Shown: one piece after another, positions 1,464 through 42,082 of the stretch
Layout of the letters: each line of letters starts with the position of its first letter
Position numbering within the stretch: position 1 is the first letter of the stretch
Assembly: GCA_944392565.1 (NCBI GenBank)
Contig: CALXWX010000002.1
Location: 117,853-181,852 of the forward strand
DNA from: an uncultured Alphaproteobacteria bacterium
GTDB lineage: Bacteria; Pseudomonadota; Alphaproteobacteria; Rs-D84
Length of the DNA: 64,000 nt
Direction: 5' to 3'
Translations under genes and position numbers: made by a program
The notes under the pieces: generated by a model
Told to the model about the DNA's origin: nothing
The model's input: the letters and a program-made list of their open reading frames with translations, nothing else
The model's database searches: none

Positions 1464-4400
1464 CTATTCGATTTCAACCTTTATCCCCAGATTAATAAAA
1501 TCATTTGCGGTTGTTGCGCCCAATTCAACCCCACCTGGCAACGCAACCGCGGCAACCTTGTCCGTGGCATGCAGATTCAAAACGACCCGTGTTGGTCCCG
1601 CCCGTAATGCCCCCAATGCTTTTTTTACATCTGGCAAAACAGCACCATCATATATATCCAATGTTATTTTTTTCGCGATTTTTGCCACCCATTGGGTCAA
1701 TGGCATTATTGAATCAACAAATATCGACACCCTGTCATCACGGCATGATGTTTTTCCAGATATTAATACCAATGTTTCATTTGACAGTATTTGCGCAAAT
1801 TCTGCCGCCGATTGTCCAAACGCAACCGCATCAATATTACCAAAACTGTCCGATGCGTTTATAGTAATCATATCCTTGCCAGCCTTGGTCCGGCGGCGCG
1901 AAAACGAACCAACAGTCGCGGCAATTTGCACCGGTTTTCTGTCGCCCAATGTTGCCAGTGTCGCACTGGTCGCCAGGTTTGCCCGTTTTATCAAATGCTT
2001 ATACTGATCCAACGGATGCGCCGATATATAAAATCCTAACGCCGATAATTCATTTTCTAATCGCTGGGCAAATGTCCATGGTTTGGTTCGGGGTAAATTC
2101 TTTTTCAGTCTGTCTTCGGCAACATCGTCTTCGACCGTATTGGCAAACAGCGACAACAGGTTTCCACCATCGCGGGATTTTGACGCATATGATAAAATCG
2201 CATCTGCATTCATAAATATTGCCGCACGATTTGGCTCTAATGAATCCAGAACACCGACCTTGGCAAACGCTTCCAGAATTCGCTTGTTTATAATTGGCGC
2301 ACATCGTTTTGCAAAATCAGTCAGGTTTTTAAATTTACCCCGTGCATTTCGTTCGGCAACAATTGCATCTGTTGCGACCGTACCAACACCCTTTATCGCC
2401 GCCAATGCATATATTATTTTCCCATCACGCACAGTAAATAAAGATTCACTTTTATTAATATCTGGGGCAACAATTTGAATCCCAAAATTCGCCTTGGCAT
2501 CATCGACAAATAACGCCAATTGATCCGTATCATTTAAATTACTGGACATAGATGCCGCCAGAAATTCTGGGGTATAATTCGCTTTTAAGTACGCACATTG
2601 GTTTGCGACAATTGAATATGCAACCGCATGTGATTTATTAAATGCATATTTTGCAAATTCTTTGAATTGTTCCCATAATTCCTTGGCTTGTTCGCGATTC
2701 AGCGTTTGTTCTTTTTCACACCCGTCATAGAACTTGCCTTCCAGTTCATCCAACATCTTGGCAATTTTTTTACCCATTGCCTTGCGCACATTGTCTGACT
2801 GCCCGCGGGTAAACCCTGCCAATGCACGCGTCAATTGCATAACCTGTTCTTGATATACAATAATTCCATATGTTTCTTTCAGTATTGGTTCAGCACGCGG
2901 ATGTACATATTCGACTTTTTCTTCACCATGCATACGCGCAATAAATTGCGGAATAAATGCGATTGGTCCCGGTCGATTTAACGCATTTAATGCCGATATT
3001 TCCAAGAAACTGGTCGGATGCATTTTACGCAAAGTCTGTTGCACAAACGGGGCATCGAATTGGAATATACCTTCGGTCATGCCCGATTGCCATAACTTCA
3101 TTGTTTTTGGATCATCTGTTGGAATTTTATCCAAATCAATATTTATTCCACGCGTTTGTTGAATTAACTTTATCGCATACTTTAATATCGCCAGTGTTTC
3201 CAACCCCAGAAAGTCAAACTTAATCAATCCCGATGATTCCAAATAATGCCCATCAAATTGACACGATGGTAACGGGTTTGTCGGGTCACGATATACCGGC
3301 GCAATTTTTGTTGTGGGTCTGTCGCCGATAACAACACCACACGCATGCTGCCCCAGATTGCGCAAAGACCCTTCCAGTTCTTCGGCAATGGTTACAACCT
3401 TGTTCATATCTTCATCTGTTTGCAAAATTGCCTGAATTTCTGGGGACGAATCAACCGCTACTTTTAAAGTTTTTGCATCCTGTGGAATCAGCTTTGATAA
3501 TCGGTCTGATTTAGAATATGGTATCCCATACACGCGCCCAATATCACGAATTGCACCACGCGCTTGCAGGCTGCCAAATGTAATAATACGACAAACGGAA
3601 TCATGTCCATATTTATCACAAATGTACGCCAACACGCGTTCAATTCCCGTTGGTTCAAAATCCACATCAAAATCAGGCATTGAAATACGATCTGGATTTA
3701 AAAATCTTTCAAACAGCAATCCATATTTCAATGGGTTCACATGGGTAATACCCAATGCCCACGCAACAATTGATCCAGCCCCAGACCCACGCCCCGGACC
3801 GGTTAAAATATCATTGCGCCGACACCAATCAATATAATCTGCAACAATCAGGAAATAACCGGGGAATCCCATGTTAATAATAACCCCCAGTTCGAATTCC
3901 GCCTGTTCATAATATGGGGCGGTATCTGTAATACCATGCTGTGCCAGATTTTTCGCCAACCCCGCCATCGTGTGGTCGCGCAACATTTTGCATTCTTGTT
4001 CCAAATCATCACCAAACCGCGGCAATAATGGCTTTTCATGAACATTAACCATAAAACCGCACCTGTTTGCGATTATAACCGTGTTTTCTATTGCCTCTGG
4101 CAAATCAGAAAATAATTCTGACATTTCTGCGGCTGATTTAAAGTATTGTTCTGATGATTTGCGTGGTCTGTCTGGATCAATAACCTTGGTCTGCCCCAGC
4201 ACGCAACTTAACGCATCTTCGGCTTCATAATCATGTGGTGTGGCAAATTCAACATCATTTGTTGCAACAATTGGAATATTTAAATCCAACGCGATTTTTA
4301 AAAATGCTGGTTCTGTCTTGATTTCATCTGCCAACCCATGCCGCTGAATTTCGATATAGAATCGGTCGCCAAAAATATCCAAGAATTTTTTTGCATATTC

Positions 4401-4874
4401 GCGCGCCAATGTATCTTGATTATTTAAAATCGCCATACCAATGGGACCGGTATGCGCACCCGACAGGCAAATTAACCCACTTGAATGCGATTCCAATTCA
4501 TCAAATGTGATATACGGTCCCAGATGATGATTTTCTGTACGCATGTACATAATACGACTTAATTCGCATAAATTTAAATATCCATCATGATTTTGCGCCA
4601 ACAAAACGATACGCGACAATGCATTTAATCGCAAAATTTTTGGGTCCGCATTATGCTGGTTCAATGTGATTTCCGTGCCGATAATCGGTTGGACATGATT
4701 TTTCGGCATAACATCAGAAAATTCCGCACACCCCGACATCATATTCGTATCCGTCATGGCGCATGCAGTCATATTGTTTGCAATGCACAGTTCCGGAATT
4801 TGCTTTATTTTCAGCGTACCGGCACCAATTGAAATACGCGAATGTACACGAAGATGAACGAATTGATTTTCCAT
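1464..4874 (-). CDS. dnaE: DNA polymerase III alpha subunit
   Basis: 1136 aa from ATG 4874 (MENQFVHLRVHS, PHP domain), followed by the polymerase core and a C-terminal OB region. The track ORF starts 20 codons earlier. Confidence 0.96.
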   Translation of the reverse strand: MENQFVHLRVHSRISIGAGTLKIKQIPELCIANNMTACAMTDTNMMSGCAEFSDVMPKNHVQPIIGTEITLNQHNADPKILRLNALSRIVLLAQNHDGYLNLCELSRIMYMRTENHHLGPYITFDELESHSSGLICLSGAHTGPIGMAILNNQDTLAREYAKKFLDIFGDRFYIEIQRHGLADEIKTEPAFLKIALDLNIPIVATNDVEFATPHDYEAEDALSCVLGQTKVIDPDRPRKSSEQYFKSAAEMSELFSDLPEAIENTVIIANRCGFMVNVHEKPLLPRFGDDLEQECKMLRDHTMAGLAKNLAQHGITDTAPYYEQAEFELGVIINMGFPGYFLIVADYIDWCRRNDILTGPGRGSGAGSIVAWALGITHVNPLKYGLLFERFLNPDRISMPDFDVDFEPTGIERVLAYICDKYGHDSVCRIITFGSLQARGAIRDIGRVYGIPYSKSDRLSKLIPQDAKTLKVAVDSSPEIQAILQTDEDMNKVVTIAEELEGSLRNLGQHACGVVIGDRPTTKIAPVYRDPTNPLPSCQFDGHYLESSGLIKFDFLGLETLAILKYAIKLIQQTRGINIDLDKIPTDDPKTMKLWQSGMTEGIFQFDAPFVQQTLRKMHPTSFLEISALNALNRPGPIAFIPQFIARMHGEEKVEYVHPRAEPILKETYGIIVYQEQVMQLTRALAGFTRGQSDNVRKAMGKKIAKMLDELEGKFYDGCEKEQTLNREQAKELWEQFKEFAKYAFNKSHAVAYSIVANQCAYLKANYTPEFLAASMSSNLNDTDQLALFVDDAKANFGIQIVAPDINKSESLFTVRDGKIIYALAAIKGVGTVATDAIVAERNARGKFKNLTDFAKRCAPIINKRILEAFAKVGVLDSLEPNRAAIFMNADAILSYASKSRDGGNLLSLFANTVEDDVAEDRLKKNLPRTKPWTFAQRLENELSALGFYISAHPLDQYKHLIKRANLATSATLATLGDRKPVQIAATVGSFSRRRTKAGKDMITINASDSFGNIDAVAFGQSAAEFAQILSNETLVLISGKTSCRDDRVSIFVDSIMPLTQWVAKIAKKITLDIYDGAVLPDVKKALGALRAGPTRVVLNLHATDKVAAVALPGGVELGATTANDFINLGIKVEIE

Positions 4875-4979
4875 GCCCCGACAATAGCAAAAAATCCACC
4901 CCCAGGGCAACCACATTATTATCAAAAAAATCAAAATTTTTTATTACTGGAAATTCAACCATTTATATGCCATAATAAA

Positions 4980-5135
4980 TGCGCATTGGCTGATTACCAA
5001 TGCGGGGTCTAGAAGCCTCATATAAGTAAAACTCTCCAACACGGGTTGGAGGGCTGTTAATATATCGAATATACAGCACTATTACTTGTAATAGCTTCTA
5101 GCCTCCAACCGCCCATAATCACGGCGGTGTTTTTA
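4980..5135 (+). ncRNA. Unassigned structured leader-like RNA, copy 1 (homolog of 40910-41128)
   Basis: Possible -10 CATAAT at 4971-4976. Hairpin P0 4983-4989/4997-5003, P1 5009-5016/5094-5101, P2 5034-5040/5045-5051. Conserved AAUAUAUCGAAUA 5059-5071 and CAGCAC 5074-5079. Terminator ccgcc/ggcgg plus U-run 5109-5134. All helices covary with copy 2. Confidence 0.6.
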
Positions 5136-5191
5136 TTAACCCAATAAAACAAGTGGAGATAGAAAAATGATACTGGTCGATAATTCATACA

Positions 5192-5416
5192 TTGGTAAAA
5201 AAAATACATCGGTCGCGCAGAACCGCAAAAGTAAGACGAAACGATGCGGCAAAGATGTTACGCATAACCCCAAAGAAATTATTAAGGTATGAAAGCGGCA
5301 AAGAATTAATCCCCGAATGCGTACTGGAACGATTGTTCTATAACGCATGGGCAATGATGGCAGTGCGAAATGCACAGTATCGTGAATTGCCCCGCCGCCC
5401 ACAGTGGGAAAAATGA
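5192..5416 (+). CDS. Small XRE-family helix-turn-helix protein (start uncertain; possible A8-tract frameshift from ATG 5167)
   Basis: The 74-aa track ORF starts at a TTG with no SD. HTH segment AAKMLRITPKKLLRYESGKELIPECVLERL. An SD (GGAGA) plus ATG 5167 sits in the adjacent frame and would join this frame if the A8 tract 5197-5204 were A7. Confidence 0.6.
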   Translation: MVKKIHRSRRTAKVRRNDAAKMLRITPKKLLRYESGKELIPECVLERLFYNAWAMMAVRNAQYRELPRRPQWEK

Positions 5417-6732: not shown

Positions 6733-7137
6733 TTATTCTGCATCCAGTTGTGTACGCAAACCAACACGCTGGAATCCCGCATCTTTTAATTTACCCATTA
6801 TTGACATAACCGCACCATAATCAGCAGACGCATCGCCACTGATCATGATTGTTAAATCAGGATTTTCACCGCGCATCGCAACCACACGACGCACCGCATC
6901 ATCACGCGAAACCAATGTCTTGCCCACATAATAATTACCCGCGGCATCAACACTGATTTGAATTGCATGATCATTTCCCGACAATGCTGAATTTCCCGCC
7001 CGCGGCAGATTTAAATCAATTCCCGTGGTCAGCATCGGTGTCGTTACCATAAATACCGCCAACAAAACCGTCATGACATCAATCATTGGTGTCAGCGACA
7101 TTGTGGCATCTGTATTACGAATTCTTCTGCGTGTCAT
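6733..7137 (-). CDS. tolR: Biopolymer transport protein TolR/ExbD
   Basis: MSLTPMIDVMTVLLAVFMV signature and the ExbD fold length of 134 aa. Confidence 0.9.
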   Translation of the reverse strand: MTRRRIRNTDATMSLTPMIDVMTVLLAVFMVTTPMLTTGIDLNLPRAGNSALSGNDHAIQISVDAAGNYYVGKTLVSRDDAVRRVVAMRGENPDLTIMISGDASADYGAVMSIMGKLKDAGFQRVGLRTQLDAE

Positions 7138-7138
7138 A

Positions 7139-7660
7139 TTATTTTGCCCCGCGTTTATTATTTTTCGGAAATTTTTCGAACTTCATTTCTTTACATTTTT
7201 CCGTCAATTTATCATATAAATCATCAGACTTTTTACTGAAATAATAATATGCAACCGCCGCCGGCACCGCCGCAATCAGCCCCAACGCCGTTGTACCCAA
7301 TGCTGTTGCCAATCCCGGCGCAATAACACCAATTGACACCGATTGATTTATACCAATTGATGAAAAAGAATCCATCACACCCCAAATTGTACCAAACAAC
7401 CCAACAAACGGCGCGATATAAGACAACATTGACAAGAACCATAAATTTTTATCAAATGGTCGAATTAATTTATCTGCAATTGTCGATAAATTATCAGAAT
7501 TTTTAATCTGGACCGGATTTCTTTTTTGATAATGCCATAAACGAATTTTTTCAATTATAACCGCCCAAGAAATAACACTGCCCAAAATCAGAACCAGCGA
7601 AATAAACAATGTCATTAAATCGCCCGTGAACAATGTTGTAAAAGAAAACGCATTTGTCAT
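7139..7660 (-). CDS. tolQ: Tol-Pal proton channel protein TolQ/ExbB (short form)
   Basis: MotA/TolQ/ExbB motif FVGLFGTIWGVMDSF. Three TM helices. Confidence 0.9.
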   Translation of the reverse strand: MTNAFSFTTLFTGDLMTLFISLVLILGSVISWAVIIEKIRLWHYQKRNPVQIKNSDNLSTIADKLIRPFDKNLWFLSMLSYIAPFVGLFGTIWGVMDSFSSIGINQSVSIGVIAPGLATALGTTALGLIAAVPAAVAYYYFSKKSDDLYDKLTEKCKEMKFEKFPKNNKRGAK

Positions 7661-8067: not shown

Positions 8068-9053
8068 TTTTCGATTCCTAAATGTTTATATCCCGCATCA
8101 GTAATAACACGACCGCGCGGCGTACGCTGAACGAACCCCATCTGCATTAAATACGGCTCTATTACATCTTCAATTGTATCAACTGGCTCTGACAGTGCCG
8201 CCGCCAAATTTTCAATTCCAACAGGTCCCCCAGCATAATGGCGCACAATCGCATTCATATATTCGCGGTCAATTTCATCCAGTCCACTTTCATCAATATG
8301 CAACTGGAACAATGTTGTCTTTATCGTATCTGATGAAATTTCTGTGCGTCCCAATGCAGTTGCAAAATCCCGCGCCCGCTTTAATAATCTGTTTGCAATA
8401 CGGGGTGTGCCACGCGCACTGTGTGCCAGCATTTTTGCGCCATCTGTATCAATCGGCATACCTAATATATTTGCACTGCGCATAATGATTTTTGCCAAAT
8501 CATCTGTTGTATAAAACGACAAACGCAAATCAATACCAAATCTGTCCCGTAATGGGTTTGACAGCAGTCCTGTACGCGTTGTTGCGCCCACCAAAGTAAA
8601 CGGGGGCAGGTCAATCCGTACACTTTTTGCCGATGGTCCTTCGCCCAACATTATATCCAACTTGAAATCTTCCATTGCGGAATATAAAACTTCTTCGATT
8701 GCGGTGGGCAAACGATGTATTTCATCAATAAACAGAACATCCATCGGTTCCAGCGATGTCAGTATTGCCGCCAAATCACCTTGCTTGGTCAGCATCGGTG
8801 CCGCTGTTGCACGAAAATTTGTTCCCAATTCATTTGCAACAATATGCGCCAGTGTTGTTTTTCCCAATCCCGGGGGACCATATAACAAAACATGATCCAT
8901 CGCTTCGCCGCGCGATTTTGCCCCAGATATAAATACAGATAAATTCTGCTTTAACGCGTCATGCCCAATAAAATCCGCCAACACGCGCGGACGAATGGAT
9001 GCCGCCATTTCATCTGGGATATTTGGATCTAAAAATCTGTCTGTATTCTGCAT
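8064..9053 (-). CDS. ruvB: Holliday junction branch migration helicase RuvB
   Basis: Walker [16 protein letters not shown], sensor and winged-helix regions. Start taken at MQNTDRF (ATG 9053); the track ORF extends to 9095. Confidence 0.95.
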
Positions 9054-9057
9054 ATTA

Positions 9058-9717
9058 TTACAACAACTTATTATCTGCATTTTCACGACCGACATACGCC
9101 TTTAAATCATTATACATCTGGCGCAAATCTGCCGGCTGGCTATATAAAGAATCTGCATTTTTAACACGAATTGTTTCCAAATCAATCTGTGCCTGCTTTT
9201 TTAAAACCTGGGTTAAATGTGTTGCGAATGCCTTGGCGTCATCAGATTCTGCCGCACCCTGTAATAACAGCCCACGATTTGGTCGCGGCGATAAAAATGC
9301 AAAATCTGCAACGGATGGATCTGGTGATACCAATGCAAATCCTGAAACCTCTGGACGACGCATCATTGCCTGTAAAACATACCACGCCCCCAGTTGATTT
9401 CCCGCCAGCCATATTTTATCACTATCTTCATTTCTGTTCTGAATCCAGTCAATTACTGTTGCGATATCCAGCATATTTTCTGATGTGGTGCCAATTGCCC
9501 CCTCAGAATAATTTACACCACGGTAATTAAATCGCACAACAGAAAATCCGATATCCATAAATGCACGAAACATTGCATACGATACACGATCATTCATATG
9601 ATATTTCTGCCGCGGGTTCCCAGATAAAATCACCGCCAACGGCGCAGATGGCGTATCAGACTTATGATAAACCGCATGTAATTTTCCTGCATCCCCTGAA
9701 ATCATTATGTCAACCAT
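9058..9717 (-). CDS. Alpha/beta-hydrolase-fold protein, probably catalytically inactive
   Basis: COG2945-like layout. The nucleophile elbow reads GNQLG (Gln where Ser is expected), and the expected ADHF His position reads ADSLY. Confidence 0.7.
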
Positions 9718-22216: not shown

Positions 22217-22279
22217 CCCATACAAAAATAAACAAACGCCACTGCGGGCGTTTCTTTATTTTTGGTCGGGGCGACAGGA
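22217..22279. repeat. 63-bp direct repeat, proximal copy (overlaps the real tRNA-Pro 3' end)
   Basis: cccatacaaaaataaacaaacgccactgcgggcgtttctttatttttggtcggggcgacagga, identical to 22026-22088. Confidence 0.9.
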
Positions 22280-22339
22280 ATCGAACCTGCGACCCCTTGC
22301 ACCCCATGCAAGTACTCTACCAGGCTGAGCTACGCCCCG
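22263..22339 (-). tRNA. tRNA-Pro (anticodon GGG)
   Basis: Reverse complement cggggcgtagctcagcctggtagagtacttgcatggggtgcaaggggtcgcaggttcgattcctgtcgccccgacca. Cloverleaf with loop aU-GGG-Gu, G37, and encoded CCA. Confidence 0.9.
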
Positions 22340-30889: not shown

Positions 30890-30966
30890 TGGTGGATGTG
30901 ATTGGACTCGAACCAACGACCTCTTCGATGTGAACGAAGCGCTCTAACCAACTGAGCTACACATCC
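30890..30966 (-). tRNA. tRNA-Val (anticodon CAC)
   Basis: ggatgtgtagctcagttggttagagcgcttcgttcacatcgaagaggtcgttggttcgagtccaatcacatccacca. Confidence 0.9.
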
Positions 30967-30985
30967 ACAAACACATAATATCAGG

Positions 30986-31072
30986 TGGTGGGGATAGTGG
31001 GACTTGAACCCACACGGTCGCAATGACCAAAGGATTTTAAGTCCTCAGCGTCTACCATTCCGCCATATCCCC
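30986..31072 (-). tRNA. tRNA-Leu (anticodon TAA)
   Basis: Class II tRNA with a long variable arm and anticodon loop cu-UAA-aa. Acceptor ggggata/tatcccc plus ACCA. Confidence 0.9.
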
Positions 31073-31094
31073 ATTCGGACTTACAATGCATGAT

Positions 31095-31134
31095 ATACTA
31101 ATGCAAAATGGGCATTCTTGTCAATATTTTTCTG
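31095..31134 (-). promoter_or_regulatory. Sigma70-like promoter for the tRNA-Leu(TAA)-tRNA-Val unit
   Basis: On the minus strand: TTGACA (31134-31129), 18 nt spacer, TAGTAT (31100-31095). Confidence 0.5.
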
Positions 31135-31290
31135 AATAAAATTAACAAAAATCACCGCCCATACTGCATATACCAATTCAAATGCGCATTTATCGCTGTT
31201 GTAATTCGTCAATGCGCACCCGCAATGATGACAGCCATGCCCCAACATGGGCGAAAAACAAAAAACCGCCCATTGGACGGTATAAAACCT

Positions 31291-31366
31291 TGGTGGAGCT
31301 GATGGGACTCAAACCCACGACCTCTACGATGCGAACGTAGCGCTCTATCAACTGAGCTACAACCCC
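31291..31366 (-). tRNA. tRNA-Ala (anticodon CGC)
   Basis: G3:U70 identity pair and anticodon loop uu-CGC-au. Followed on the minus strand by a terminator hairpin at about 31262-31288. Confidence 0.9.
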
Positions 31367-31371
31367 AAAAC

Positions 31372-31458
31372 TGGTGCGGATAAGAAGACTCGAACTTCCA
31401 AGGCATTGCTGCCACTAGTACCTGAAACTAGCGCGTCTACCAATTCCGCCATATCCGC
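31372..31458 (-). tRNA. tRNA-Leu (anticodon CAG)
   Basis: Class II tRNA with anticodon loop uu-CAG-gu. Acceptor gcggata/tatccgc plus ACCA. Confidence 0.9.
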
Positions 31459-40834: not shown

Positions 40835-40845
40835 ACAATCAAATA

Positions 40846-40870
40846 ACGCCCCCGATGGGGTGTTTTTTTT
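40846..40870 (+). terminator. Intrinsic terminator after rpiB
   Basis: acgcccc-cgat-ggggtgt plus T8. Confidence 0.75.
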
Positions 40871-40876
40871 ATACTC

Positions 40877-40905
40877 TTGCATTATTTTATATATCGCGAT
40901 AATAT
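40877..40905 (+). promoter_or_regulatory. Sigma70-like promoter for RNA copy 2
   Basis: TTGCAT (40877-40882), 17 nt spacer, TAATAT (40900-40905). The P0 hairpin begins about 8 nt downstream. Confidence 0.5.
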
Positions 40906-40909
40906 TAAA

Positions 40910-41128
40910 TTGTTAACGGGTGTTCCGTTAATGGGGTGTGACTACCTCTGCATAGGCGTCAGAATATAAACCCATCGCGTAATAACATACGCATGATTTA
41001 TTATTCGACGAAAAATATCTCCTGACATTAACCGGTCAGGAGGGCATGCGAATATATCGAATAAGCAGCACAATTCCTATGATTGTAGTCAACCTCCTGA
41101 CCACCATGCAAAAACTGGTGGTTTTTTT
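40910..41128 (+). ncRNA. Unassigned structured leader-like RNA, copy 2 (homolog of 4980-5135)
   Basis: P0 40913-40919/40925-40931, GGGGU 40933-40937, P1 40939-40945/41085-41091, about 70-nt insertion, P2 41019-41026/41035-41042. AAUAUAUCGAAUA 41051-41063, CAGCAC 41066-41071, CCUCCUGAC 41093-41101. Terminator ccacca/tggtgg plus U7 at 41101-41128. Confidence 0.6.
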
Positions 41129-41158
41129 CATTACGAAAAACAGCAGGAGATTGAACAA

Positions 41159-42082
41159 ATGAAAAACAAAATAACAATTACGCTAATCTTGTCGTCAATT
41201 TATATCATGGCATATACTGCTCCATCCAATTCTGCCGAATGCATGATAACCAGCACCATGTGTTCAGACGCATCCGCATCAACAATGCAATTGGGGGATC
41301 ATTGTTCACAAACGAACACATTCTGTTATTCTGGAACAAATTATACAGAATGCAAAACATGTGCATCTGGATATAAAATGACGCAGCATGTATTAAATCA
41401 CTCAACAGGCTGCACAATAACATACGACACATGTATAAAATCATCCGGCACCACAGACCCAGATCCATGCGATGATTGTTCACCCACACAATGGGTTAAT
41501 ATAACCGGTATTTTTGGCGACGCAACCGGATATCAATCACGAACCAATGCAACATGTGAATGGATTGAAGTGGACATAAATGGATTAACAAGTTACAAGC
41601 AAACATGTGTTCGCGAAGAAGAAGTGCGATGTGCATCCGGGTATTATGGCAACGCCGTGCATACCACCGGATACAGCGGATGCAACAAATGCCCAGAATT
41701 TAATGGCGGCGATGGGAACAGCGTATCGGGACAAAGCGCCGCCGGCACAGCTGCCGAAATAACAGATTGCTATGTTGAATATGATGGTGAAAATCCATTT
41801 TATGATAACACCGGCAGTTATATTTTTATCAGCCCATGTTATTATTCATACGAATCTGGTGATTGCCGCGTCCATGAACTGGCAACCGGCGCCACATGCA
41901 AATCTGCGACCCCAGTATGGGGTCTGGGCATGCACTGCGAAACAACAAAATACATTCGTCTGGATTCTGCTGACATGTGTTTTTCGCAGTGCGCAACATG
42001 CCCATCTGGGTATGAAATGCTGATTCGAACAACGACATACAGCGGATGCAATATCACATTTCAAACATGTGGCGAAATATAA
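41159..42082 (+). CDS. Secreted Cys-rich repeat protein (paralog of 44799-45410)
   Basis: Signal peptide. Internally duplicated module C-x-[TS]-C-[AP]-SGY-[KE]-M...GC-x-IT-[YF]-x-TC at both ends. CASGYYG...GCNKCP furin/ephrin-receptor-like spacing. Shared ITDCYV...TGSY.F..CYYS block. Confidence 0.8.
   Translation: MKNKITITLILSSIYIMAYTAPSNSAECMITSTMCSDASASTMQLGDHCSQTNTFCYSGTNYTECKTCASGYKMTQHVLNHSTGCTITYDTCIKSSGTTDPDPCDDCSPTQWVNITGIFGDATGYQSRTNATCEWIEVDINGLTSYKQTCVREEEVRCASGYYGNAVHTTGYSGCNKCPEFNGGDGNSVSGQSAAGTAAEITDCYVEYDGENPFYDNTGSYIFISPCYYSYESGDCRVHELATGATCKSATPVWGLGMHCETTKYIRLDSADMCFSQCATCPSGYEMLIRTTTYSGCNITFQTCGEI

Follow-up and report, generated by a model that had tools for sequence, protein, structure and literature searches.

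A structured RNA element of about 190 nucleotides (nt) found twice on the plus strand of a 64,000-nt stretch of DNA from an uncultured Alphaproteobacteria bacterium (GenBank assembly GCA_944392565.1, contig CALXWX010000002.1, positions 117,853 to 181,852; the whole stretch is called the window) is, by covariance-model comparison, a divergent and hitherto undescribed branch of the known sRNA-Xcc1 family of small RNAs (sRNAs; Rfam RF02221), with homology established for its 3' domain. Rfam has listed the family as a 'trans-acting sRNA' since about 2012. Both copies in the window have the anatomy of a transcription unit, the helices described below, three covarying strands (A, B and C) and an overlap of strand C with the stem of an intrinsic terminator. 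It is proposed, with moderate confidence, that each copy is a self-contained leader unit of an sRNA-Xcc1 superfamily working as a default-off transcription attenuator, in which B paired with C would be the antiterminator, and A, together with the 5' domain, the anti-antiterminator.

The element had been noticed in a first-pass annotation of the window, which described an orphan leader RNA followed by a Shine-Dalgarno (SD) sequence and an ATG. The sequence strings, the coordinates and the arms of helices P0, P1, P2 and the terminator given there were all verified in the sequence, as was a third strand, CCUCCAAC(C) at 5102-5110 in copy 1 and CCUCCUGACC at 41093-41102 in copy 2, and the analysis supports the element's description as a structured plus-strand RNA that is conserved, has a promoter and an intrinsic terminator of its own and lies just 5' of an SD and ATG. 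The islands common to the two copies are GGGGU (5004-5008 and 40933-40937), GGAGGGC (5048-5054 and 41039-41045), AAUAUAUCGAAUA (5059-5071 and 41051-41063) and CAGCAC (5074-5079 and 41066-41071). With up to 3 mismatches allowed, the 21-nt motif AATATATCGAATANNCAGCAC matched the 64-kb window at the two copies only, with 0.03 matches expected. Both copies folded better than shuffled sequences (z = -5.9 for copy 1 and -5.7 for copy 2; 0 of 200 shuffles as good). A full-length covariance model, R1, built from 32 cores in the nested OFF fold and run with filters off, found only two sites in the window, copy 1 at 91.9 bits and copy 2 at 73.2 bits, the next best scoring 13. Helices P1b, Pa and P4 and the overlap between strand C and the terminator stem had been overlooked earlier and are added here.

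The covariance-model search for homologs that the annotation had suggested was run on the window and on loci fetched from other genomes, including phage contigs, Escherichia coli and Bartonella (designated by L-numbers such as L020 and L039). With R1 it returned 50 copies from about 28 alphaproteobacterial metagenome-assembled genomes (MAGs), with the same order of parts throughout. In a model-fitted alignment of 47 distinct sequences, 97.5% of the cells of the nested fold (P1, a variable hairpin, P2, which is A paired with B, and P3) were paired, a count that leans towards the nested structure since the alignment was fitted to it. The covariation score of this fold was 0.562, compared with 0.182 for shuffles (0 of 500 reached the observed value) and 0.05 to 0.07 for slid partners, bearing out the earlier claim that the helices covary. 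P1 was 99.7% paired and had two-sided compensatory changes in 7 of 7 pairs, with 30 distinct 5' arms. Similarity owed to a decaying DNA repeat, to the end of a mobile element or to chance would fit the occurrence of many copies in varied genomic contexts. This reading is effectively refuted by the covariation and has next to no probability: the helices stay complementary while their sequences change completely, the positions of promoter and terminator are fixed, the downstream open reading frame (ORF), where one was called, always runs in the direction of the element, and no inverted terminal repeats or transposase genes were seen adjoining the two window copies.

Helices outside the model were also found to be paired in the same alignment (B:C, 96.2%; P4, 91.6%; Pa, 85.9%). 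One pair of P4 was U-A in 31 sequences and A-U in 12, and Pa covaried through GAGG:CCUC, CAGG:CCUG and GCGAGA:UCUCGC variants. P1b was assessed by a swap test because it is too variable to align, and gave -8.05 kcal/mol with cognate partners compared with -1.94 kcal/mol with the partners of other copies; the corresponding values for P1 were -7.5 and -1.6 kcal/mol. Such tests were uninformative for Pa, P4, A:B and B:C, in which most copies have identical strands, and a per-copy table was used for these along with the pair counts. Across 46 unique copies, B:C comprised 9 to 11 contiguous pairs and A:B 8 to 10. The three strands varied jointly over at least six types (AACC, UGACC, UGCC(C), UGGCC, CGACC and AGCC), and a change from G:C to U:A was seen at the ninth B:C pair. 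An SD-like strand with two mutually exclusive partners had been claimed at the outset, and because both partners vary in step with that strand in the 46 unique copies, the attenuator logic drawn from it is well founded. The terminator stem, of 5 to 6 base pairs (bp) in most copies and up to about 9 (-4.5 to -12.6 kcal/mol), begins at position 6 to 8 of C, and 1 to 3 nt were common to C and the stem in 46/46 terminator-bearing copies. The closing pair of P1 uses nucleotides that are also used in Pa and P4. The covariation supports two competing sets of helices, in which B would pair either with A upstream or with C downstream.

The label 'orphan' proved to be wrong, as the B-to-C domain is a divergent relative of RF02221. 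An Rfam scan at gathering score returned nothing at either copy, whereas in E-value mode copy 1 had a sub-threshold match to RF02221 (35.0 bits, E = 1e-4 in a 271-nt search; the gathering threshold of 53 bits was not reached), and the outer stem of the Rfam model fell exactly on B:C. For copy 2, no RF02221 match was found at an E of 10 or less. The threshold was reached in 0 of 18 relatives' loci, where the gathering-score matches were tRNAs and one rRNA fragment; the best relative was L021:2579, a copy not selected by motif, with 37.5 bits (match at 2635-2716). The search was also made in the opposite direction with a second model, R2, for which 44 alphaproteobacterial B-to-C domains in the ON fold were the sole input. 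The targets were 120 phage contigs with the Xcc1 loop motif (776 kb), of which 14/14 tested were RF02221 at 65 to 85 bits. R2 gave 50 matches at E of 1 or less (best 47.7 bits, E = 3.8e-8) with no false positives; 48 overlapped the exact Xcc1 loop motif, and the other 2 were further Xcc1 copies in a tandem array. The residues aligned by R2 on phage Xcc1 were GGAGGGCG.CGAAUA...G.C-C.C...GUUU..AACCUCC..CAC. This reciprocal retrieval of phage Xcc1 elements by R2 establishes that the 3' domains are homologous. R1 detected neither the E. coli Xcc1 nor the Bartonella plasmid locus discussed below; only R2 bridges to Xcc1.

The first sRNA-Xcc1 was an 88-nt RNA cloned from Xanthomonas campestris (PMC2996969), and copies have since been described 5' of symE in integron cassettes (bioRxiv 10.1101/2025.06.18.660453), ahead of an ORF6N protein in APSE phage (bioRxiv 10.1101/2020.03.17.996009) and in E. 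coli EDL933 (PMC5331693). The EDL933 copy (NZ_CP008957) scored 69 bits here and lies directly upstream of a prophage antirepressor gene. No report of a mechanism for sRNA-Xcc1 was found in the literature that was located. As a separate observation, the phage contig L118 holds four sRNA-Xcc1 copies in tandem (8279-9487) with a period of about 381 nt, and an equal period has been reported for five sXF copies in a Xylella genomic island (PMC12189769).

The alphaproteobacterial copies reproduce the RF02221 architecture, with B:C contiguous in 46/46, P3 and P4 adjacent, and the 3' arm of P1 in the place of the linker. In common with Xcc1 they have an outer stem of 9 to 11 bp (GGnnGGnGG/CCnCCnnCC) with G-C after it, a first hairpin bearing a bulged C and an AAUA/GAAUAA internal loop, an adjacent second hairpin, a linker of 6 to 8 nt, a hairpin overlapping the 3' strand of the outer stem, and then an SD and the start of a gene on the same strand. 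They also share with phage Xcc1 an upstream hairpin whose loop complements the linker, followed by a strand that complements the loop of the second hairpin. The first-hairpin sequence of RF02221, AAUACAAuACCCGaAAGGGGAAuaa, is kept in its flanking GAAUA...GAAUAA and its bulged C, whereas the inner stem ACCC-GNAA-GGGG is replaced by a short loop; L021:2579 alone has a stem inserted there. The alphaproteobacterial family further differs in having an extra upstream copy of C, the A strand, able to capture B, and in ending in a true intrinsic terminator, whereas an internal terminator-like hairpin with the loop CCCGNNAG, between the 5' domain and Xcc1, was seen in phages only. An A strand was looked for in the phage Xcc1 loci and rejected (22% compared with 26% in swapped controls); the CACCCGA found 5' of the EDL933 element belongs to the conserved terminator loop CCCGNNAG. 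Downstream genes also differ, encoding mostly secreted proteins here and DNA-binding proteins in Xcc1. By genomic position, copy 1 precedes a gene for an XRE helix-turn-helix (HTH) protein and copy 2 one for a secreted Cys-rich protein, with no mobile-element context.

In the phage loci, whose pairings were parsed as contiguous helices, the 5' partner is not modelled by Rfam and consists of a hairpin, GAGG[..UCGAAAAC]CCUC, whose loop complements the linker. An upstream complement of the linker was present in 78% of these loci compared with 28% of swapped controls, and a second copy of both arms, adjoining or overlapping the SD, in 74% compared with 26%. In the alphaproteobacterial family the upstream linker partner was found in 100% of copies compared with 17% of swapped controls, whereas an SD-proximal second copy of the P1/P1b arms was rejected (31% compared with 38%). 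From these contrasts in target sites and in the A strand, the two branches have a common sensor-like core but different wiring to expression. The full phage layout comprises the 5' partner hairpin, the CCCGNNAG hairpin with a U-run, and second copies of the arms at the SD of an antirepressor-like gene (L047:24579-24900 in E. coli EDL933, L052, L055, L056, L060, L063 and L068).

This order of site, RNA, site, SD and antirepressor is that of P1/P7 c4 and of P4 CI with seqA and seqC, and a c4/CI-like layout of Xcc1 loci has, as far as was found in the literature, not been described before. The P4 CI RNA is accompanied by seqA, CI (seqB) and seqC and the P1/P7 C4 RNA by a1b1, a'b' and a2b2, and IsrK of Gifsy-1 also belongs to this group (PMC4825925). 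As in those systems, the alphaproteobacterial element has a leader-embedded recognition strand that complements one upstream and one downstream site (A-B-C), with specificity set by short covarying strands; pairing in P4 and P1 ends transcription early or keeps a downstream regulator gene from being translated. The copies might accordingly be self-targeting antisense RNAs like those of P1/P7 immI and P4 immunity, the B-carrying RNA pairing in trans with A or C of nascent transcripts and copies forming cross-talking regulons (AACC class and UGACC class). Besides the A-B-C layout and the complementary sites of the phage relatives, identical A, B and C strands in many copies per genome would suit this explanation, as would the two copies of the window, each of which represents a different class. 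It is nevertheless unlikely: the duplicated downstream target near the SD is absent from the alphaproteobacterial family, B is buried in the A:B hairpin of the terminated RNA, neither copy matched Rfam C4 (RF01695) or isrK, and the loci lie among housekeeping genes with no phage or satellite context. CI and C4 moreover act in trans after processing, and their pairing terminates transcription or blocks the ribosome-binding site, whereas B:C in cis is predicted here to prevent termination. The stem followed by A-C-C recalls RNase P maturation of C4/CI as a reminiscence only.

To survey the family, species-representative genomes were scanned once with GGAGGGCN{3,8}AATATATCGAATA, giving 41 loci, of which about 38 were true relatives. 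All of these were in alphaproteobacterial MAGs from gut, rumen or termite gut (Candidatus Enterousia, 'Rickettsiales bacterium' Gx481/Gx485, and RGIG, RUG and UBA bins); one is labelled Muribaculaceae and was probably misbinned. Three matches in other phyla lay inside genes and were dismissed as chance, as were five matches, none with flanking features, in a scan of viral_contigs with the alphaproteobacterial loop motif. A blastn search of copy 1 against plasmids found no match. Among the 50 R1 copies, 12 lacked the exact search motif and hence were not selected by it. In these the big P3 loop keeps AAUA...AAUA around a variable middle (UAUYG, UAUAG, UUCAG or ACACA), and in one a UGCG-UUCG-CGCA hairpin is inserted in mid-loop. 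The variable hairpin has a short GUCC-GYGG-GGAC form in most family members and is missing from copy 1. Directly 5' of strand A, a single-stranded A-rich tract (4 to 8 A) was present in nearly all copies, including those without the variable hairpin (for example, A2 alignment columns ~96-107, window positions 5026-5031, and GAAAACAC in L006), and is a candidate docking site for Hfq or S1.

The limits of the transcription unit were equally regular. A sigma70-type promoter was identified in 44/48 copies, 28 of them with an extended TG, and its -10 box ended 24 to 28 nt (mode 26) before the core, that is, 6 to 8 nt before the first base of P0. This 8-bp hairpin, at -5 kcal/mol or better, was present in 46/48 copies with differing sequences, and a hairpin with a U-run was found at 46/48 unique tails, both window copies included. 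Wherever a downstream ORF was called it was on the strand of the RNA element, and in 31 of 41 cases its SD and start codon lay at most 66 nt past the core, or about 15 to 40 nt past the U-run. In about three-quarters of the copies this spacer leaves too little room for a further promoter ahead of the downstream gene. In copy L044:1481-1585, which has no terminator, strand C is followed after 5 nt by AAGGAGG and AUG. Since it runs straight into the SD and AUG, the element is, at least there, a 5' untranslated region; two further copies in the same MAG comprise one with a terminator and one without. Sequestration of the SD by strand C in L044:1481 was unsupported, as the minimum-energy fold pairs C with a 5' GAGG.

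According to the proposed mechanism, transcription would begin at the P0 hairpin, and as the RNA emerges, strand A would capture the SD-like strand B in the local hairpin P2. P1 and P1b would join the 5' domain to the 3' side, GGGG would pair with the 5' half of C (CUCC), and the free 3' end of C would close the short terminator stem. RNA polymerase would then halt, leaving a stable RNA of about 150 to 220 nt (OFF). In the ON state, pairing of B with C over 9 to 11 bp would restore the closed fold of three helices represented by the Rfam model of sRNA-Xcc1. GGGG would fold onto the CCYC immediately after the P1 5' arm to give Pa, P4 would form, and the P1 and P1b arms would be exposed in loops or in the linker. 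B would take the 1 to 3 closing pairs that C gives to the terminator (two G-C pairs), allowing read-through into the downstream gene, which would be translated from its own SD. In vivo the two folds are expected to alternate, with B:C blocking termination and a signal shifting the balance. In copy 1 the OFF fold was the minimum-energy state at -59.5 kcal/mol, compared with -44.6 for ON, and paired GGGG with CUCC at 5103-5106 of strand C and not in Pa. In copy 2 the unconstrained, OFF-type fold had -74.1 kcal/mol, that with A:B and terminator enforced -64.5 and the ON fold -63.1; the ON energies of both copies come from nested folds only and are lower bounds on ON stability if pseudoknots form. 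Pa together with P1 would fit the classical H-type pseudoknot geometry, with a loop of 1 to 2 nt over a stem of 6 to 7 bp.

The three successive, mutually exclusive strands, the last overlapping an intrinsic terminator, and the default-off state are like those of classical attenuators and riboswitch platforms. Unlike these, the element has no leader peptide, no T-box tRNA-binding features and no known aptamer. Leader-peptide attenuation was rejected after inspection of the alignment, in which no AUG, ORF or SD is conserved within the RNA. A metabolite- or ion-binding riboswitch, with a ligand at the P3 internal loop or at the junction stabilizing one fold, would account for the aptamer-like multi-helix core, the competition between antiterminator and terminator, and the invariant unpaired nucleotides, all as in transcriptional riboswitches, and would be a new class, since no Rfam riboswitch family matches. 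The genes downstream, however, show no metabolic or transport theme: about 28 encode proteins with signal peptides, many of them Cys-rich, six encode small XRE HTH proteins and one a GmrSD nuclease. No significant Pfam match was found for the six signal-peptide proteins that were scanned. The phage homologues in turn precede antirepressor genes and have variable loops that pair with RNA targets, which points to RNA-RNA or protein recognition. For both reasons a metabolite trigger is disfavoured relative to a host protein or RNA, and a riboswitch is considered quite improbable. The signal acting on the proposed attenuator is most likely a trans-acting protein or RNA that would recognize either P3, by its invariant internal loop AAUA/GAAUAA, or the A-rich tract adjoining A.

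Several points weigh against the attenuator. Apart from the lean of the pair counts towards the nested structure, P1 and B:C, or Pa/P4 and P1/P1b, may coexist as pseudoknots, so that the folds would not be strictly exclusive; the overlap of C with the terminator is only 1 to 3 nt; termination and read-through are themselves predictions from sequence; and the element falls into no known sensor or ligand class, with no Rfam riboswitch, T-box or leader match at either copy. The locus L031:6199-6814 resembles a set of sRNA genes more than it does leaders: three units, each complete with promoter, RNA and terminator, are spaced about 245 nt apart, no ORF separates them, and an XRE gene follows. The homologous B-to-C domain of Xanthomonas and E. 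coli builds up as a separate RNA of about 88 nt (88 to 89 nt, abundant and with low ribosome occupancy; PMC2996969 and PMC5331693), which would fit an RNA product with a function of its own.

The tandem units and the discrete RNA favour the main alternative explanation, that the element is an autonomous, constitutively terminated sRNA gene acting in trans, like the published sRNA-Xcc1 or Brt RNAs; the exposed CCUCC of C or A could, for example, be an anti-SD, or the P3 loop could be the seed. Leaky read-through would couple the downstream gene only loosely, and folding or maturation, not control of the terminator, would be the purpose of the A/B/C alternatives. The complete set of promoter, 5' hairpin and terminator in most copies agrees with this, as do the Brt RNAs, which are highly expressed while their downstream genes are poorly transcribed (PMC5387305). 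Selection on the RNA itself is also suggested by copy 1 and L039:6640-6749, in which the module from P0 to about 20 nt past the terminator (window 4983-5150) is about 98% identical, whereas neither the promoter region nor the downstream XRE gene is related, the limits of similarity being those of the transcript. This identity suggests module exchange, gene conversion or very strong selection. A trans-acting sRNA leaves four observations unexplained: the covariation of distal C with B beyond CCUCC, the closing pairs that the terminator stem invariably takes from C, the ORF with an SD that in most copies begins on the same strand within about 30 nt, and the terminator-less copy L044:1481. It is regarded as a possible but distinctly weaker explanation. 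Another cluster, L033:5059-6034, has three copies within about 850 nt, the last two of which each precede a gene of their own, for an XRE protein and a GmrSD nuclease.

The Brt RNAs of Bartonella are about 200 nt long, highly structured and present in 2 to 34 copies per genome (Tu et al. 2016, PMC5387305). They have their own promoter and lie immediately upstream of a small XRE-type HTH gene, a terminator- or riboswitch-like 3' region has been proposed for them, and the sequence similarity of Brt1-9 was reported to be restricted to the genus Bartonella (PMC5387305). The present element resembles them in being alphaproteobacterial, about 200 nt long and multi-copy within a genome, in having its own promoter and, in copy 1 and six relatives, in lying 5' of an XRE HTH gene. 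In Bartonella grahamii, the only Bartonella locus examined was the region 5' of the HTH gene on plasmid pBGR3 (L168:26490-26700), which we take to be a plasmid Brt copy. It folded at z = -6.5 and contained a three-strand set (UUCCCGG, AUUCCGGGAG and CUCCCGGAAU), a GUCC...GGAC hairpin and a long-range P1-like helix. It differs in that its third strand, C, pairs with the SD in the minimum-energy fold and does not overlap a terminator, and in having no AAUA loop motif. At this one locus R1 scored 8.7 bits (E = 3.8), and R2 and Rfam gave no match.

The features of both window copies are listed in Table 1. Upstream of copy 1 lies dnaE (1464-4934, minus strand), divergent from it, and upstream of copy 2 an rpiB-like gene with its own terminator (40845-40864); the housekeeping genes flanking the two loci are dnaE, tolQR, rpiB and a leuS-like gene, and no phage, satellite or mobile-element context was seen there. 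The only Rfam matches in the window at gathering score were tRNAs, in a four-gene cluster at 30893-31458 (minus strand) and singly at 22266-22339 (minus strand). The start codons at 5167 and 41159 lie 32 and 30 nt past the respective U-runs. The XRE gene of copy 1 is frame-broken at an A8 run (5197-5204), with a 41-residue ORF from ATG 5167 and a 74-residue ORF from TTG 5192. With one A of the run removed, it encodes an 82-residue protein that aligns from residue 1 with a homologue in L020 (41% identity, E = 3e-20), and the break is one of three things: a homopolymer sequencing error, a pseudogene or slippage-based phase variation. The 307-residue protein downstream of copy 2 had no Pfam match.

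Table 1. Positions in the window of the two copies and their parts
Feature	Position	Strand	Remarks
Copy 1	4981-5135	+	All islands and helices of the first-pass annotation present
Copy 1 promoter	4948-4976	+	TGGAAA, 17-nt spacer, (TG)CATAAT
Copy 1 P0, 5'-terminal hairpin	4983-5003	+	GCAUUGG/CCAAUGC
Copy 1 Pa hairpin	5004-5019	+	GGGG 5004-5007 with CCUC 5016-5019; loop is the P1 5' arm
Copy 1 P1 5' arm	5009-5016	+	CUAGAAGC
Copy 1 P1b 5' arm	5021-5029	+	Long-range partner 5082-5090
Copy 1 strand A	5033-5040	+	UCUCCAAC; upstream partner of B (P2), candidate anti-antiterminator; A-rich tract 5' of it
Copy 1 strand B	5044-5052	+	GGUUGGAGG; SD-like central strand, partner A or C
Copy 1 P3 hairpin	5053-5077	+	GCUGU/ACAGC; conserved loop AAUAUAUCGAAUA 5059-5071
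Copy 1 P4 hairpin	5079-5094	+	CUAUU/AAUAG, 5079-5083 with 5090-5094; loop is the P1b 3' arm 5082-5090
Copy 1 P1 3' arm	5094-5101	+	GCUUCUAG; position of the single-stranded 'linker' of the Rfam Xcc1 model
Copy 1 strand C	5102-5110	+	CCUCCAACC; downstream partner of B; 3' end within terminator stem
Copy 1 intrinsic terminator	5108-5134	+	ACCGCC/GGCGGU, 5108-5113 with 5123-5128; U-run 5130-5134
Copy 1 downstream gene	5155-5416	+	Small XRE-type HTH protein; SD GGAGA 5155-5159, ATG 5167
Copy 2	40912-41128	+	All islands and helices of the first-pass annotation present
Copy 2 promoter-like site	40876-40903	+	CTTGCA, 16-nt spacer, GATAAT; weak match, missed by a stricter scan
Copy 2 P0 hairpin	40912-40932	+	
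Copy 2 Pa	40933-40948	+	GGGG 40933-40936 with CCUC 40945-40948; encloses P1 5' arm UGACUAC 40939-40945
Copy 2 enlarged variable hairpin	40956-41013	+	GCGUC...GACG
Copy 2 strand A	41019-41026	+	CUCCUGAC
Copy 2 strand B	41034-41043	+	GGUCAGGAGG
Copy 2 P3	41044-41069	+	Conserved loop 41051-41063
Copy 2 P4 and P1 3' arm	41071-41091	+	P4 CAAUU/GAUUG 41071-41085; P1 3' arm GUAGUCA 41085-41091
Copy 2 strand C	41093-41102	+	CCUCCUGACC; 10 contiguous pairs with B
Copy 2 intrinsic terminator	41101-41128	+	CCACCA/UGGUGG, then U7
Copy 2 downstream gene	41145-42082	+	SD AGGAG, ATG 41159; 307 residues, signal peptide, 25 cysteines

Short GGTTAGTG and TTAGTGGTTAGTG repeats were also observed to adjoin several family members, either in the gap between terminator and gene or 5' of the promoter (L023 at about 6770-6800, L020 at about 7565-7600, L012 downstream, and L028 upstream on the opposite strand).

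In the branch found in the window, the Xcc1 fold would be wired to a terminator through a three-strand exchange. For the family as a whole, the Rfam model covers only the 3' two-thirds of a larger element, whose 5' partner hairpin complements the linker and the loop of the second hairpin. It is conceivable, although doubtful, that the whole sRNA-Xcc1 superfamily (phage antirepressor leaders, integron symE cassettes, the alphaproteobacterial family and possibly Brt) consists of widespread bistable sensor RNAs and not of trans-acting sRNAs, with the AAUA/GAAUAA loop binding a ligand or host factor. If so, different expression platforms, an intrinsic terminator here and an SD-proximal target in phages, would have been added to one sensor, and in the gut Alphaproteobacteria the element would be the master switch that governs secreted Cys-rich surface proteins as one large regulon. 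Testable hypotheses arise for Xcc1-type phage antirepressor leaders, for the unexplained Brt/Trp tandems of Bartonella, and for how uncultured Alphaproteobacteria of gut and rumen (Candidatus Enterousia and relatives) control dozens of secreted proteins that are still uncharacterised. With a covariance model of its own, the family would be annotated at several copies per genome, now missed by Rfam, in about 28 or more species. The finding points to a unifying, testable model for the sRNA-Xcc1 family.

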